This document shows positions 25,211 through 31,328 of a stretch of 64,000 nucleotides of DNA, piece after piece (position 1 is the stretch's first letter; each line of letters opens with the position of its first letter). The notes below the pieces were generated by a model. It was not told the DNA's origin, did no database searches, and worked only from the letters and a program-made list of their open reading frames with translations. Source of the DNA: an uncultured Verrucomicrobiae bacterium (GTDB lineage: Bacteria; Verrucomicrobiota; Verrucomicrobiia; Limisphaerales; Palsa-1400); assembly GCA_963707025.1 (NCBI GenBank), contig CAVPOM010000006.1:32001-96000 (forward strand), in the 5' to 3' direction. The position numbers and the translations under genes are program-made.

Positions 25211-25479
25211 AGGCCTAATATATGGCAATGAACCGGCTTTAGACAATGCACAATCCACGCCGGAATTGACCGCTGATGGATGTAGATTCACCTATCTGCG
25301 GGCAATTCCGGATTCGTTTGCGGTGGGCTGCGCTGTCTCCGCGCAACCCTGGGCTGCAAGCTTCAAACCCGTTGGGATTGGAAAACCAGCTTCAGGCCAT
25401 TTTAGCTTTGACATAACGGGAGGGGTGTGGGATTTTTATTCGTCGTCAGTCAAAGTTGTAAAACCTATTTTAGTTGCTT

Positions 25480-27585
25480 GTGAAAAAAACGTTCCACGGC
25501 GCAGCCGTTTTGCTGCTGTTCTCAAACCTCAATCTTCAACTTTCCACCGCCCACGCCCAGGGCACGGCGTTCACCTATCAAGGCCGCATGCTGGACAACG
25601 GCACGAACTTCAACGGCGCGGGCCAGTTCAAGTTCGCGCTGGTCAGCAGCACCAACCTCAGCAGCCAAGCCACCGCCACAGCCAATATGGGCGGCAGCAG
25701 TCCCTTTGAATTCGTCGAGAGTTATACCATCGTCTCTGGCGGCAGCGGTTATACCACCGCGCCGACGGTGACCGTTGCCGGCCCCGGCGAGTCCGGCTCG
25801 ACGGCTCTCGCCACGGCGACCATCAGCGGCGGCACGGTGACGGCCATCAACGTCATCAGTCCTGGTTCGGGTTACAGCGGCACGCCCATGGTGACGATTG
25901 CCGCGCCCCCACCGGACATCACCTACACGACCTATTGGAGCAATGACGGCACGAGTGTCAACGGCAGCCAACCAACTGCCACCGTGAGTGTGGGCGTCAG
26001 CGATGGGCTGTTCACCGTGGTTTTAGGTGACACCACCTTGGCGAACATGACGACCATTGACCCTTTATTGTTCAAGCAGTCGAACCTGCAATTGCAGATT
26101 TGGTTCAGCGATGGGGTGAATGGTTTTGCGATGCTGAATCCACTGCAAAATTTGACCCCGACGCCGTATGCGATTTATGCGGAAAACGCAAATGGTTTAT
26201 CGGCCTCCCAATTGACCAGCATTGGCAATACCAACGGAGGCTCGGGCAACTTCTTTGTCGGTCCATCGGGCAATCCGACGACGAGCGGCTTTTGGAACAC
26301 GGCCGATGGCGTTGGGGCGTTTGCAACCAACACGAGCGGGTCACTAGACACGGCCATTGGCTATCTGGCTCTTCAGGCCAACACGAGCGGCATCGATAAC
26401 ACGGCCATTGGAACACATGTGCTTCTCGCCAACACGAACGGCTCCGCAAACACGGCCATTGGCACTGGGGCGCTCATCGCCAACACGAGCGGCTTCAACA
26501 ACATCGCGCTGGGCTATCAGGCTGGCTATTTCATCACCACCGGCAGTTCCAACATTGACATCGGCAATAAGGGTCTTTCCACCGACACCAATATTATCCG
26601 CATCGGTAGCGTCCAGAGCCAGACGTTCATCGCGGGCGTCATCAACGGCAACGGCAGCGGGCTGACCAATCTCAATGGCGCGCAATTGACCGGCGTCATC
26701 ACCGGCAACGGGGGCGGGTTGACCAACATTCCTGCCAGCGCGGTTGTGCCTGCTCCCGCCGGCATGGCGCTGATTCCGGCGGGAACGTTCCCGATGGGGG
26801 ACACCCTGGATGGCGAGAGCGACGCCATCCCGACAAACATATATGTGTCGGCGTTTTACATGGACGTGAACCTGGTGAGCTATGCGCAATGGCAGTCGGT
26901 GTATTTTTGGGCCACGAACCACGGGTATGGCTTTGTGAATGCGGGTGCCGGGAAGGCGGCGAATCATCCGGTGCAGACAGTGGATTGGTATGACGCGGTG
27001 AAGTGGGGCAATGCGCGCTCGCAGCAGACGGGTTTGACGCCGGTGTATTACACGGATTCGAACATGACGGTGGTTTATACGAATGGGGAGACGGATGCCG
27101 TCTATGTGAAGTGGTTGGCCAATGGGTATCGGTTGCCGACGGAAGCGGAGTGGGAAAAGGCGGCGCGGGGCGGGTTGAGCGGACAGCGGTTTCCGTGGGG
27201 CAACGTCATCACGGAAAACCTGGCCAACTACAACGGAGATACCGCCGATTTTAGCTATGATTTGGGGCCGAACGGATACAACGCAGCCTTTACGAACGGA
27301 TTGGTGCAACCCTACACGAGTCCGGTGGGATATTTTGCGGCGAACGGGTATGGACTGTATGACATGTCTGGGAATGTTTTTGAGTGGTGTTGGGATTGGT
27401 ATGGAACGCCGTATGGACAACCGACCAACACGAATCCAACCGGACCGGGAACCGGGAGCAACCGCGTGTTGCGCGGTGGCCATTGGCTCGACCCCCCCAA
27501 CAACGCGCGATGCGCGGATCGCCTCGACACCATCCCGCTCAACGTCAGCAACTACCTCGGGTTTCGTTGTGTGAGGGGGCTTTAG
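25480..27585 (+). CDS. Secreted protein with AFTYQG N-terminal domain, GSGY repeat, NTAIG repeats and C-terminal FGE-sulfatase (CLec-fold) domain
   Basis: AQGTAFTYQGR; MALIPAGTFPMG, HPVQTVDWYDA, YRLPTEAEWEKAARGG, NGYGLYDMSGNVFEWCWD, RVLRGG, GFRCV. Confidence 0.9.
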   Translation: MKKTFHGAAVLLLFSNLNLQLSTAHAQGTAFTYQGRMLDNGTNFNGAGQFKFALVSSTNLSSQATATANMGGSSPFEFVESYTIVSGGSGYTTAPTVTVAGPGESGSTALATATISGGTVTAINVISPGSGYSGTPMVTIAAPPPDITYTTYWSNDGTSVNGSQPTATVSVGVSDGLFTVVLGDTTLANMTTIDPLLFKQSNLQLQIWFSDGVNGFAMLNPLQNLTPTPYAIYAENANGLSASQLTSIGNTNGGSGNFFVGPSGNPTTSGFWNTADGVGAFATNTSGSLDTAIGYLALQANTSGIDNTAIGTHVLLANTNGSANTAIGTGALIANTSGFNNIALGYQAGYFITTGSSNIDIGNKGLSTDTNIIRIGSVQSQTFIAGVINGNGSGLTNLNGAQLTGVITGNGGGLTNIPASAVVPAPAGMALIPAGTFPMGDTLDGESDAIPTNIYVSAFYMDVNLVSYAQWQSVYFWATNHGYGFVNAGAGKAANHPVQTVDWYDAVKWGNARSQQTGLTPVYYTDSNMTVVYTNGETDAVYVKWLANGYRLPTEAEWEKAARGGLSGQRFPWGNVITENLANYNGDTADFSYDLGPNGYNAAFTNGLVQPYTSPVGYFAANGYGLYDMSGNVFEWCWDWYGTPYGQPTNTNPTGPGTGSNRVLRGGHWLDPPNNARCADRLDTIPLNVSNYLGFRCVRGL

Positions 27586-27694
27586 TTTTTGTGCTTTTAC
27601 ACTTTAACCCTTTTGAACGAGTGAGTGCGTTTTGATCAAAGTCAAAGGTCAAAGGGTCAAAGGGGTCAAACCATATATTTGCACTGTTTTGCGC

Positions 27695-27723
27695 TTGCCA
27701 CGCTCAGTGCATTGCGGCACGAT
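27695..27723 (+). promoter_or_regulatory. Putative sigma70 promoter for a leaderless transposase mRNA
   Basis: TTGCCA-17 bp-CACGAT, 6 nt before ATG 27730; both hexamers and the spacing are kept in the paralogous copy at 30575-30603 while the spacer has diverged. Confidence 0.55.
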
Positions 27724-27729
27724 GGGCCG

Positions 27730-28669
27730 ATGCCACGGCAATTGCGCATCGAGTATCCCGGGGCGATCTATCATGTCCTGAGCCGGGGAAATCGTCGGGA
27801 AGCCATCTTCGTTGATGATGGCGACTGCCATGATTTTATCAAAACCCTGGCCGAGGCTTGCCAGAAAACCGGCTTCCAAATTCACGCCTTTTGCCTGATG
27901 AAAAACCATTTTCATTTGGTGGTCGAAACGCCGCAAGGCAATCTGGTGGCCGGAATGCGCTGGCTCTTGAGCACCTATTCCAACCGGTTCAATCACCGGC
28001 ATGATCGGTGCGGCCATGTTTTCAGCGGGCGCTACAAAGCACTGGTGGTGGATGGCAGCGGCCGCGGGTATTTGCGCACCGTTTGCGATTACACTCACCT
28101 CAACCCGGTCCGGGCCGGATTATTGCCCGCGGCCAGCCGGCTGCTGGAGTATCCCTGGAGCAGTTTTGGGTTTCTATTTGACGGAGGTGAAACATCGGCC
28201 CGGGTGGCTGCGGGTGGACCGGTTGCTCGGCGAGCATGGCATTGCCAGGGACACGGCCTCCGGGCGGCGGGAATTTGAGGGCCGGATGGAAAGCCGCCGC
28301 GCCGGGGAGGGAGAGGCCGGCCCGTGGAAGGGGATGCGGCGCGGATGGTGCTTTGGAACAGCCGATTTCAAGAAAGGACTGCTGGAAAGGCTGCAGGGAC
28401 ACTTGGGCCCAAACCACTCCGGCAGGCTGCGCCAGGAGGCGGGCCAGGCGGGCGCGGAGGCGCTTATCTCCAAGGCCCTGAGGCGGCTGGGATGGAAAGA
28501 GGAGGAATTGGGCAAGCGGGCCAAAAGCGACCCGGGCAAAGTGAGGTTGGCGGCGCAATTGCGCCAGGAGACGACCCTGACCATCGGGCAGATCGCGCAG
28601 AGGTTGCACATGGGAACCCGCAACACCTTGGCGACAAACCTGCAAGGAAGAAAAGGCACGAACGGATGA
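27730..28669 (+). CDS. Y1 (IS200/RAYT-like) HUH transposase with C-terminal HTH extension (apparent extra T near 28172)
   Basis: MPRQLRIEYPGAIYHVLSRGNRREAIF, CLMKNHFHLVV (HUH), GHVFSGRYK, YTHLNPVRAG, YPWSS; C-terminal LTIGQIAQRLHMG. Confidence 0.9.
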
Positions 28670-28846
28670 ACGGGATAGCGCAAATATGCGGTTTGACCCC
28701 TTCCCCGCCAGGAGACGACCCTGACCATCGGGCAGATCGCGCAGAGGTTGCGCATGGGAACCCGCAACACTTTGGCGACAAACCTGCAAGGAAGAAAAGG
28801 CAGGAACGGAGGAACGGGATAGTGCAATTATGCGGTTTGACCCTTT
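28562..28846 (+). repeat. Tandem duplication (141-bp unit, 144-bp period) of the transposase 3' end plus right IR
   Basis: 28562-28702 repeated at 28706-28846 with a few substitutions. Confidence 0.92.
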
Positions 28847-28850
28847 CGAC

Positions 28851-29573
28851 ATGAACACATCCCATAATTATAAGCTGGCTGTTGTTGTCCCCCTTGTGGC
28901 AATTTGCACATTCATTCCATTCCGTACAAAGGCGCAAGGGAGTTTCCAAAACCTTGATTTTGAGAGCGCCAACCCAGGCACGTTAACGCCAAATCCAACC
29001 GGGCCACCTTATGCTCTCAATGTTCCGGTAGCAAATGCACTTCCGTCGTGGAGTGTATATTACGGCGACATCCAGCAAACGGTTGTCAATGTTAACGATC
29101 CATCTTTGGGGGCCGCAGCCGTCGCGCTCATTGGCCCACAAGACAACCCAATTGATGGAAACTACAGCGTTTTGCTCCAACCTGGCGGTTCCGTAAATTA
29201 CATCAGCGCCTCAATTGCTCAGGATGGCACGATTCCAGTAGGAACGGAAACCTTGCTTTTTAGGGCGTGGCAACCGATGTCCGCGCTGCCGTTTTCCGTC
29301 TCCTTCGCTGGCAACAGTCTTTCGCCCGTCGAGATTTCGTCAGGCCAAAGCCCATTGGGACAAGGCTATAATGTTTATGCCGCCGCAATAGGTGCTTTCG
29401 CGGGGCAAAATGGACAACTGGAGTTCACAGTGAACGGCGAAAACTATAACAGTGTTTTGCTCGACGATATCGCCTTTTCCCCAAACACCGTGCCCGAACC
29501 CCGCACGCTGGCGCTTCTTGTCATGGGTGGGGTGGCGCTGGCCGTGCGCCGCTGGCGCGCCAAGGCTTCATGA
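28851..29573 (+). CDS. PEP-CTERM sorting-domain protein 1
   Basis: Signal peptide; FQNLDFESA; C-terminal VPEPRTLALLVMGGVALAVRRWR. Confidence 0.88.
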   Translation: MNTSHNYKLAVVVPLVAICTFIPFRTKAQGSFQNLDFESANPGTLTPNPTGPPYALNVPVANALPSWSVYYGDIQQTVVNVNDPSLGAAAVALIGPQDNPIDGNYSVLLQPGGSVNYISASIAQDGTIPVGTETLLFRAWQPMSALPFSVSFAGNSLSPVEISSGQSPLGQGYNVYAAAIGAFAGQNGQLEFTVNGENYNSVLLDDIAFSPNTVPEPRTLALLVMGGVALAVRRWRAKAS

Positions 29574-29667
29574 GAACGTAAATGGGTCACCTTCCACTTC
29601 CACCCCCTTCAGACTAAGTATCTCCAGGTCGTAGGAGATCCGTTTGTGATTAAATAGTGAAATTATT

Positions 29668-30384
29668 ATGAAGATTAACACAATAGCACTTCTCCTAATC
29701 TCGGCGACAGTCGAGGATGGCTTTTCGCAAGAAGCGTTCCAGAACCTAAATTTCGAGGCTGCTGATGTTGCTGGTTACGCTCCAAACAGTTCCACGGTTC
29801 CGACCAGCAGCGCATTTCCCGGTTGGCAAGCGATTTATGGCGCGAATCCGCCATCTGCCCAGGTTTGGTATGACGGTCTAAGTATTGGCGGTCCAATGAT
29901 TTCGATTTTGGACAACAAGGCAGGGTCGCCGATCCAGGGAAATTATAGTGCCGATCTCTTTGCGGCAGTTGTAGGTACGACTACCTACAGTGTAACTCTG
30001 AGCCAGACTGGCGTAGTTCCCGCAAGCACAGAATCCATAGAGATGGATGCCAATCAGGCGGCGTCATCTTCATTTGTTGTGACGCTTGGAGGTGAACCCG
30101 TCAACATGGTGCCGTTGCAAAGGTTTGCCAATTACACGTTGTGGGGCGGCGATGCCTCAGCGTTTGCAGGCCAAGACGTGGCATTGAGCATTACCGAGCT
30201 GCCGCCCGCAAATCAAGAATATTCGCCCAGCCTGCTTGAGTTGGATAACATCACTTTTTCCCAAACGACGGTCACACCAGAACCTGGCACCCTGTCGCTC
30301 CTTGTTGTGGGCGCCACGGCATTTGCTGTGCGTTCGTGGTGGAAGCGCGTCAAGGCTTCCCGGCAGAAGCCCAACAAGGCATGA
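29668..30384 (+). CDS. PEP-CTERM sorting-domain protein 2 (paralog of the previous gene)
   Basis: FQNLNFEAA, PIQGNYS, LSQTGVVP, FAGQ, LDNITFS, TPEPGTLSLLVVG..WWKR. Confidence 0.88.
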   Translation: MKINTIALLLISATVEDGFSQEAFQNLNFEAADVAGYAPNSSTVPTSSAFPGWQAIYGANPPSAQVWYDGLSIGGPMISILDNKAGSPIQGNYSADLFAAVVGTTTYSVTLSQTGVVPASTESIEMDANQAASSSFVVTLGGEPVNMVPLQRFANYTLWGGDASAFAGQDVALSITELPPANQEYSPSLLELDNITFSQTTVTPEPGTLSLLVVGATAFAVRSWWKRVKASRQKPNKA

Positions 30385-30821
30385 GTTTATGGCCTCTCCT
30401 GGTCCACTAGGCAACCAATAGCATGGCACTTGGCACCTATTGGAACGGCGCCAAATGAGCTTCGCGTTACTTACCTGCCCTGGCTCAATGGGGAGAGTTT
30501 TCACTTATCATTCCGAACGCCTCAACACATCAAAGGGGTCATCATATATTTGCGCTGTTCGCCCTGTTTTGCGCTTGCCACCCTCTGTTCTTAGCGGCAC
30601 GATGGACCGATTCTCATGTCTTTGGCAAGATACCACGGCGCTTTGTCGTCTTGAGGCCAGAGGTTTATACGGTTTCCGCATCTTTCGGATTTGTTTCCAT
30701 GCAAATCTAAACAGATTCTTTCCCAATGGCGGAAAATGAGGCGTTGAAAAAACTGGACGGGCAGAAAGAAAAAGGCAAGGGCACGGAGGAGAAACAGACA
30801 GAAAGCAGCGCAAAAGAAGGC

Positions 30822-30911
30822 AATGTAACGCAAGGTAACAGGCAGGTAACGGTGGCAGAATCCACAAGTGGCTCACTATCAACAAGTGTAACGGGGTTAC
30901 GGGTGTAGCGC
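30822..30911 (+). repeat. 90-bp dispersed non-coding element, copy 2
   Basis: Colinear with 7889-7978. Confidence 0.8.
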
Positions 30912-30974
30912 TGCAATGCCCCCTTTGGCGAGCGTGGGCCGTGACCGCTCCCAACCTCGCCAAAGGCCACGTTA

Positions 30975-31066
30975 TACCGTTTCCAGTTCGTAACTGCACT
31001 ATTGCCAATGCGATTGGCGGCGGTCACAGACCGCCGCTACAGTGCAAAAGCAAACTGGAAACGGTA
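30975..31066. mobile_element. 92-bp MITE-like element containing a GTAG-type REP, copy 1
   Basis: TIR TACCGTTTCCAGTT / AACTGGAAACGGTA, TTA on both flanks; internal GCGGCGGTCACAGACCGCCGCTAC. Confidence 0.75.
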
Positions 31067-31164
31067 TTAGCCGCGCCGCAGTCGAAGGGGTCCAACAATA
31101 GCTTTGTCCAAGCCTGCTCAAAGAGGGCCATGATTCAAGTTCAAGTTGGGCAAAGCTATAGTTA

Positions 31165-31256
31165 TGCCGTTTCCAGTTCGTAACTGCACTATTGCCAAGG
31201 CGATTGGCGGCGGTCGCAGACCGCCGCTACAGTGCAAAAGCAAACCGGAAAAGGTA
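31165..31256. mobile_element. 92-bp MITE-like element, copy 2
   Basis: Near-identical to 30975-31066, TTA flanks, TIR slightly degenerate. Confidence 0.75.
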
Positions 31257-31328
31257 TTATCTTTGATGACCCCTTTGAGGCTCTCCCGCGAGGAGAGGGG
31301 ACAGCGGTCGTCCTCCGTGGGTTGGCGG

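Follow-up and report, generated by a model that had tools for sequence, protein, structure and literature searches.

Scattered ends and partial copies of a TIRtron around a tandem pair of PEP-CTERM genes in an uncultured Verrucomicrobiae bacterium

In the genome of an uncultured Verrucomicrobiae bacterium (GenBank assembly GCA_963707025.1), 64,000 nucleotides of contig CAVPOM010000006.1 (positions 32,001 to 96,000, hereafter the window) contain a Y1/HUH transposase gene between inverted repeats, followed by two PEP-CTERM genes around which pieces of those repeats recur as far as position 31278. Does this layout represent an integron-like system that acquires surface-protein genes one by one at dedicated sites, as an earlier interpretation made from the letters alone (the sequence-only reading) had proposed, or is it the residue of a known kind of mobile element? 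The answer that we favour, with a confidence slightly better than even, is that the transposase gene is part of a frameshifted TIRtron, that ends and partial copies of this element have accumulated in a variable slot, and that they bracket there a ready-made tandem pair of PEP-CTERM genes and not cassettes loaded singly. The debris in the window is likely piled-up wreckage rather than a set of integron-like cassette sites. All coordinates are those of the window unless a contig or locus is named, and features given without a strand have none assigned.

The transposase gene (27730–28669, plus strand) lies between a left terminal inverted repeat (TIR) of the GGGGTCA type (27660–27685, plus strand) and a right one, R1 (28677–28702, minus strand). 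The 25-bp match that the sequence-only reading had noted between 27660–27684 and 28678–28702 was confirmed (22/25 identical). Outside the left tip, at 27636–27659 (plus strand), stands a "stutter" of three growing units (6, 7 and 8 nt), each beginning 9 nt ahead of the TC of the tip. An intact sister of the gene, encoding 315 amino acids and 96% identical, is present on another contig of the same genome (G000, C16:111532–112479); relative to it, the window gene carries one additional base within a T run, at about 28171, so that either the gene is broken by a frameshift or the assembly is in error in that stretch. The three sequencing runs listed, none of RNA and all in the form of low-depth contigs, yielded no informative junction over 28100–31300 and no read across the additional base. 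That the product is an HUH/Y1 nuclease was borne out: PF01797 (the Y1_Tnp core) was matched in 31/31 aligned proteins, H62 and Y121 are invariant and H60 nearly invariant in the alignment of 31 homologs (H60-F-H62 forming the HUH motif), and the predicted structure (mean pLDDT, the predicted local distance difference test score, 84) has TnpA-REP (4ER8) as its best fold match. A sequence search of solved structures using the alignment returned no match. The C-terminal helix-turn-helix (HTH) that had been proposed stood in part: there is a C-terminal extension, and the predicted structure closes with three helices (268–311), while the HTH families gave only weak matches (HTH_20 in 2/31 proteins, and HTH_31) and no score as Bac_DnaA_C, HTH_23 or HTH_28.

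The sequence-only reading had held that this layout corresponds to no known type, which proved incorrect. The original account, in its accessible text, describes a TIRtron as a RAYT-like gene flanked by inverted repeats that contain GGGGWSAS (Di Nocera et al. 2013, PMC3733652); it has been equated with TnpA-Y1 subclass 2.1 (Quentin et al. 2018, PMC6006769), and TIRtron, or TIRYT, is also RAYT group 1, which among true RAYTs duplicates at the highest rate (Bertels et al. 2017, PMC5581495). Classified by the features of its gene and ends, the window element is a TIRtron (TIRYT, Y1 subclass 2.1, GGGGWSAS ends). It shares with the published ones the RAYT-like Y1 gene, the C-terminal extension, the GGGGWSAS flanking repeats, dispersed single and dimeric repeat copies and some recent duplication, with the qualification that its end reads GGGGTCA, with A instead of S at the last position. 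Unlike them, the window copy carries a frameshift and is nested; neither stutters nor co-oriented partial copies nor tip-bounded islands are among the features given in the accessible text of the TIRtron accounts. With REPtrons (E. coli TnpA-REP, PDB 4ER8) and IS200/IS605 elements the family has in common the HUH/Y1 core fold and 5'-phosphotyrosine chemistry. It differs from both in its ends, which fold no better than shuffled sequence (z 0.13 to −1.27), and in the absence of GTAG-footed REP hairpins, which were looked for flanking the gene at the element and not found; it differs from IS200/IS605 also in having an enzyme of 315 amino acids rather than a short TnpA with subterminal hairpins. 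The corresponding protein models scored below their cut-offs (NF047646 for REPtrons, 59 bits vs 80 on the truncated window frame; NF033573 for IS200/IS605, 24 bits vs 55).

Homologs of the protein occur in 34/41 relatives, and the closest named records bear titles mostly of Verrucomicrobiota. Inverted ends of at least 16 nt and at least 80% identity were found in 67/83 full-length homologs with usable flanks. Among the immediate neighbours (n=165), transposases aside, there was one clearly orthologous pair (87%); since the neighbours differ at almost every locus, the gene together with its ends is the mobile unit. The end is also a true dispersed family at its full length: a 24-nt profile gave 47 matches above score 20 in the genome (17 of them the profile seeds) vs 1 in the reversed genome. 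The 8-mer AAGGGGTC by itself is not enriched in the genome (159 observed vs 147 expected).

The recurrence within the window is itself real. The motif sites at 28846, 29579–29611, 30530, 31082 and 31260–31278 all derive from element ends, as parts of larger pieces rather than as free-standing motifs. The first belongs to a 142-nt copy of the 3' end of the transposase gene with a second right tip, R2 (28706–28847, plus strand). It differs from R1 at 7/142 positions, 4 of which are common to the C16 copy, and a recent local duplication was rejected as its origin because R2 is closer to the sister copies than to R1. At 29579–29611, between the two PEP-CTERM genes, a left-type tip is fused to a right-type stutter. 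A 13-mer of this spacer is found only there and at the right-tip stutter of the intact C16 copy, and the motif match occurred also in 5/600 control spacers; the spacer is probably the footprint of a lost TIR element, i.e. an element formerly between the PEP-CTERM genes would have left a fused-tip scar. Downstream, the left-end copy L' (82 nt, 30530–30611, plus strand) stops at the transposase start codon. Finally, a gene-less miniature TIR element whose right end is interrupted (31082–31163, plus strand) and the outermost right tip (31260–31278, minus strand) form a single miniature element, divided by another repeat of 95 nt.

The PEP-CTERM genes encode proteins A (240 aa, 28851–29573) and B (238 aa, 29668–30384), both on the plus strand. 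They are indeed diverged paralogs (36% protein identity) of lower GC content (53% vs 58–68% in the neighbours), as had been noticed. The low GC was rejected as a sign of capture, being a trait of the whole PEP family (mean 0.534, range 0.505–0.57 in 20 homologs). A local duplication was rejected too: A and B are not sister proteins, and the sister of B (99/95 support) stands third in a tandem array that lacks the element, in another genus. The family is present in 21/31 family genomes, often in tandem. In tandem arrays without the element, the spacers measure about −4 to 20 nt vs 94 nt between A and B. A tip-like motif or a transposase relic stood beside the PEP block at 3/20 loci, and at 0/13 further locus records (6 genomes) and 0/7 metagenomic loci. 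A large RCC1-type gene often lies upstream of the family (9/20 loci by tail motif). At L131–L136, L141, L143, L144 and L148, large RCC1-repeat genes are followed by one to three PEP-CTERM genes, and the unit of 3' fragment plus PEP gene is sometimes repeated, a layout like that of toxin-tip/immunity arrays. Note that a third PEP-CTERM paralog of the genome (L001:3642–4355, C6:747641–748354) is flanked by two genes of a hydrogenase operon; a 9-nt direct repeat stands at each of its ends, and there is no TIR. In G002 this place is taken by a DUF433/DUF5615 pair, in G003 and G005 by other genes, and in G004 it is empty.

How could such a pile-up arise? Stutters, i.e. short tandem repeats outside a tip with a common start and a variable run into the element, were scored with an exact-repeat test at 132 tips and in three control sets. 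They were found at 21/132 tips vs 15/1721, 22/3000 and 3/396 controls, and 18 of the 21 start 8–10 nt ahead of the TC step. Extra ends near an element are in direct orientation in 15 of the 16 that were typed, gene fragments lie on the same strand in 11/11 cases, and the partial copies in the window genome begin at a tip. Because of the near-fixed start of the stutters and the co-orientation of the extra ends, we propose a nick-extend-rejoin chemistry, which both features suggest; the element would most likely be a self-targeting nick-and-copy element. HUH enzymes form a 5'-phosphotyrosine and leave a 3'-OH able to prime synthesis or to attack (PMC8266576, accessible text). In our scheme the C-terminal helical domain would bind the terminal repeat, Tyr121 would nick 5' of the GGGG-TC step, at a distance of about 9 nt, and hold the 5' end, and the free 3'-OH would be extended over a variable distance and rejoined, giving duplications of 6 nt to hundreds of nt from one start point. 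The same held 5' end, if joined into older copies or nearby DNA, would produce nested same-strand ends and cut neighbours, and the pile-up would result from an enzyme that nicks just outside each end and rejoins the cut end near its own ends. Target-site duplications showed no excess over shuffled pairings among 66 full elements.

End-anchored partial copies, same-strand arrays and arbitrary junctions are also features of IS91/ISCR, of Helitron read-through capture and of IS26-type units, and the TIRtron may work in a similar way. What sets it apart is another enzyme family and a pair of symmetric inverted ends, with partial copies and stutters arising at either of them. Replitrons, Helitrons and IS91 are, in the accessible text of their description, HUH copy-and-paste elements without such inverted ends (PMC10288648). 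In the literature searched, a library poor in subscription papers, no study was found of the TIRYT mechanism or biochemistry, of stutters or of RHS or PEP-CTERM links, and a mobilome preprint deals, in its accessible text, with E. coli REPs only.

The slot occupied by this debris is variable: the genes downstream of the transposase are not invariant among relatives, so that the sequence-only reading is not refuted on this point. In G003, of the same genus, both flanks of the slot are about 90% identical and the filling is wholly different, with no transposase, PEP or FGE gene. Homology restarts at 31281, 2–3 nt past the last tip and inside a hairpin repeat, and on the left side the border falls 2.3 kb outward of the tip, so that the right border coincides with a tip and the left one does not; G003 has no true empty site. 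Its matching slot (L202:7300–9150) contains an A/T-rich hexamer array and a low-GC gene for a 189-aa beta-propeller-like protein.

Tips also delimit larger blocks in the genome. A 7.9-kb island on contig C12 (L004:2153–10103, C12:94152–102102) contains RHS fragments, small low-GC genes and transposase copies; it is empty in 5/5 same-genus genomes, and its inward TIR tips adjoin a 34-bp duplication of the empty site, a target duplication that is a single case. A 921-nt unit that begins at a tip is present in two copies, 99.9% identical (C12:94245–95166 and C13:130972–131893), with an 86-aa open reading frame without a Pfam match. In empty-site tests of seven tip clusters outside the window, the C12 island was exact at both borders, the cluster at C6:438k corresponded roughly to the tips and C16:111k at the right tip only; those at C16:59–71k and C5:319k had borders away from the tips, and C18:312k and C5:462k gave no information. 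RHS loci were within 3 kb of a tip in 5/7 cases vs 198/5569 genes. Several RHS fragments (L006:7024–10660; L004:4343–6502) start at nearly the same stretch of residues, and in two cases a tip is only a few nt away; at L044, L099, L021 and L015 unrelated TIRtrons adjoin the same secreted-protein operon (the tail of the upstream gene plus an SBBP gene) with differing cut points. The sequence-only reading had gone further and seen a system for surface proteins. The neighbour lists gave a first impression of family-wide specialisation that the broad test of secreted-protein genes near the transposase did not bear out, its result being flat (11 vs 10 of 107); a narrow post hoc test was positive (8/151 vs 3/322, p 0.006), with seeds chosen from near neighbours and one match circular.

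Several of these observations count against the pile-up around a resident gene pair that we favour, and they have to be weighed with its competitors. The tip at 28846 stands 4 nt ahead of the ATG at 28851, with a complete gene following, and in G003 a right tip adjoins an RCC1 gene that is truncated and precedes a PEP homolog. R2 is nearer to sister copies elsewhere than to R1, and L' most resembles a left-end fragment at C16, more than the left end of the window copy itself; inner ends of sister-copy type are expected if the block between them arrived from elsewhere. The C12 island and the 921-nt unit show that non-transposase DNA can sit in tip-defined mobile blocks. The signals behind the proposed chemistry have their own weaknesses: 111/132 tips are without an exact stutter, 17/33 extra ends were untyped, tips rich in A and G may be more prone to slippage than the controls, and both the stutter and the orientation counts come from loci related by descent, which are not independent. 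The competitor that draws most on these points, and which we regard as possible yet rather doubtful, is that the element brought in the R2-to-L' block, the two PEP genes included, through read-through past one end or as a composite of two ends, and that islands grow by tip-to-tip additions of arbitrary DNA. It resembles ISCR/IS91 read-through or IS26-type units. Besides the sister-type inner ends, it would account for a tip in the very place of the missing RCC1-type partner usually upstream of the PEP family, for the C12 island with its inward tips, 34-bp duplication and empty sites, for RHS fragments that begin a few nt from tips and the RHS loci near tips, and for the same beta-helix-like/SBBP operon cut at differing points by three unrelated copies. 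Yet no second copy of the PEP block was found in the data, the FGE gene is part of the slot and lies outside the left tip, the G003 slot is variable without any tip, two other islands have borders off the tips, and an element that we take to be IS4-like clusters with RHS loci as well (3/7). Moreover, transport by the element is only plausible, since an insertion followed by an adjacent deletion produces identical junctions.

The locus is like integrons (IntI/attI/attC) in that variable genes adjoin a recombinase-like gene with related sites between. On an integron-like model a dedicated enzyme would recombine units of one gene each at a standard site, with surface proteins stored in the array, which we consider very improbable. 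In its favour, a tip-like relic stands on either side of each PEP gene (5/600 control spacers matched too), and ends alternate with small low-GC genes at L100, L154 and L094. The closest precedent for the cassette idea is the link between a TnpA-REP of the same subclass 2.1 and prochlorosin arrays, where full copies and C-terminal fragments likewise occur among paralogous genes for exported products; there, however, the distance of the genes, which face the transposase, is conserved and no inverted repeats were found, whereas here the spacing is unconserved and the ends are clear, and the authors later found no strong evidence of causation and withdrew the causal claim (Laurenceau et al., bioRxiv 10.1101/2020.03.09.984088). 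Unlike integrons, the system has no such tyrosine recombinase (no IntI integrase, TIGR02249, scored above cut-off in the genome, which is 88% complete), genes are cut at the junctions and the enzyme gene itself moves and decays. Nor was integron geometry, with one whole reading frame per unit and fixed site spacing, found across 130 tips: by rough in-house gene calls, the distance to the next gene varies from 1 to 977 nt and 25/130 tips adjoin a frame that is open at the tip. An extra end within the examined flanks accompanies only about 24/83 elements, and PEP arrays form without the element, so that integron-like acquisition, as first suggested, was not sustained. It is likewise improbable that the slot owes its filling to some unrelated process, be it homologous recombination among PEP tails or the action of another recombinase, and that assembly error explains part of the picture (the frameshift and the 142-nt repeat). 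The hydrogenase-operon paralog, in a slot that differs across all same-genus genomes and is without tips, agrees with this explanation, as does a frameshift of a single extra base in a T run; the differences between R2 and R1, over half of them common to the C16 copy, show that the repeat is not a collapsed or doubled read, and the missing integron integrase tells against another recombinase of that kind.

As a locus, the accumulated ends and partial copies that we favour are ordinary debris of a known element, and their value lies at the family level. TIRYTs form the largest Y1 subclass, present in 14.9% of strains according to the accessible text of PMC6006769. The stutters predict the cut position, about 9 nt outside the TC step; an intact gene is available in the genome together with its two ends, and for the C12 island there is an empty site whose borders are exact. 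With these three, both the movement of TIRtrons and the carriage of neighbours become directly testable, and the C12 island is the best test case for cargo transport. Tentatively, and with a good deal of doubt, we suggest that TIRYTs are two-ended, rolling-circle-like transposases that nick at a fixed point outside each inverted end, target their own ends and so build islands from arbitrary 3' pieces captured out of surface-protein and RHS toxin/immunity operons; they would then act as a gene-capture engine of Verrucomicrobia for which no cassette sites are needed. If capture is true, it would be an additional route for the renewal of bacterial toxin/immunity and surface-gene arrays.

Other TIR elements of the family showed further arrangements. 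Gene-less elements of 660–700 nt beginning at a TIR tip are present at C2:62421, C9:358230, C12:343165 and C18:315966, three of them directly against the end of another TIR family. Different TIRtrons stand behind the same DUF5069 gene in two genomes, with differing downstream genes (L038 and L043), and at L095 more than 130 nt of flank and an insertion sequence are mirrored on either side of a TIRtron.

The remaining features of the window surround these pieces. A gene for an FGE-sulfatase-domain protein (25474–27585, plus strand) lies within the variable slot, outside the left tip, and a sigma-70 scan gave results at chance level. Between gene B and L' a conserved repeat about 250 nt long is represented by its left half (30403–30529, plus strand), cut at the next tip; the repeat also adjoins a tip at C6:441536, has a sharp left edge, occurs in 12/31 family genomes, in many cases immediately downstream of RHS genes and small low-GC genes (L214–L222), and could be what is left of a gene or a site of recombination. 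It had no Rfam match, and an attC-like reading of 30405–30472, made by eye, was rejected because the segment folds no better than shuffles and has no Rfam match. Beyond L' lie a dispersed GTAAC-rich repeat of an unrelated family (30822–30911) and two copies of a 95-nt inverted-repeat miniature element, the first at 30974–31067 and the second, at 31164–31259, inserted within the miniature TIR element; 25 copies of this 95-nt element are found genome-wide, with TA at their edges.

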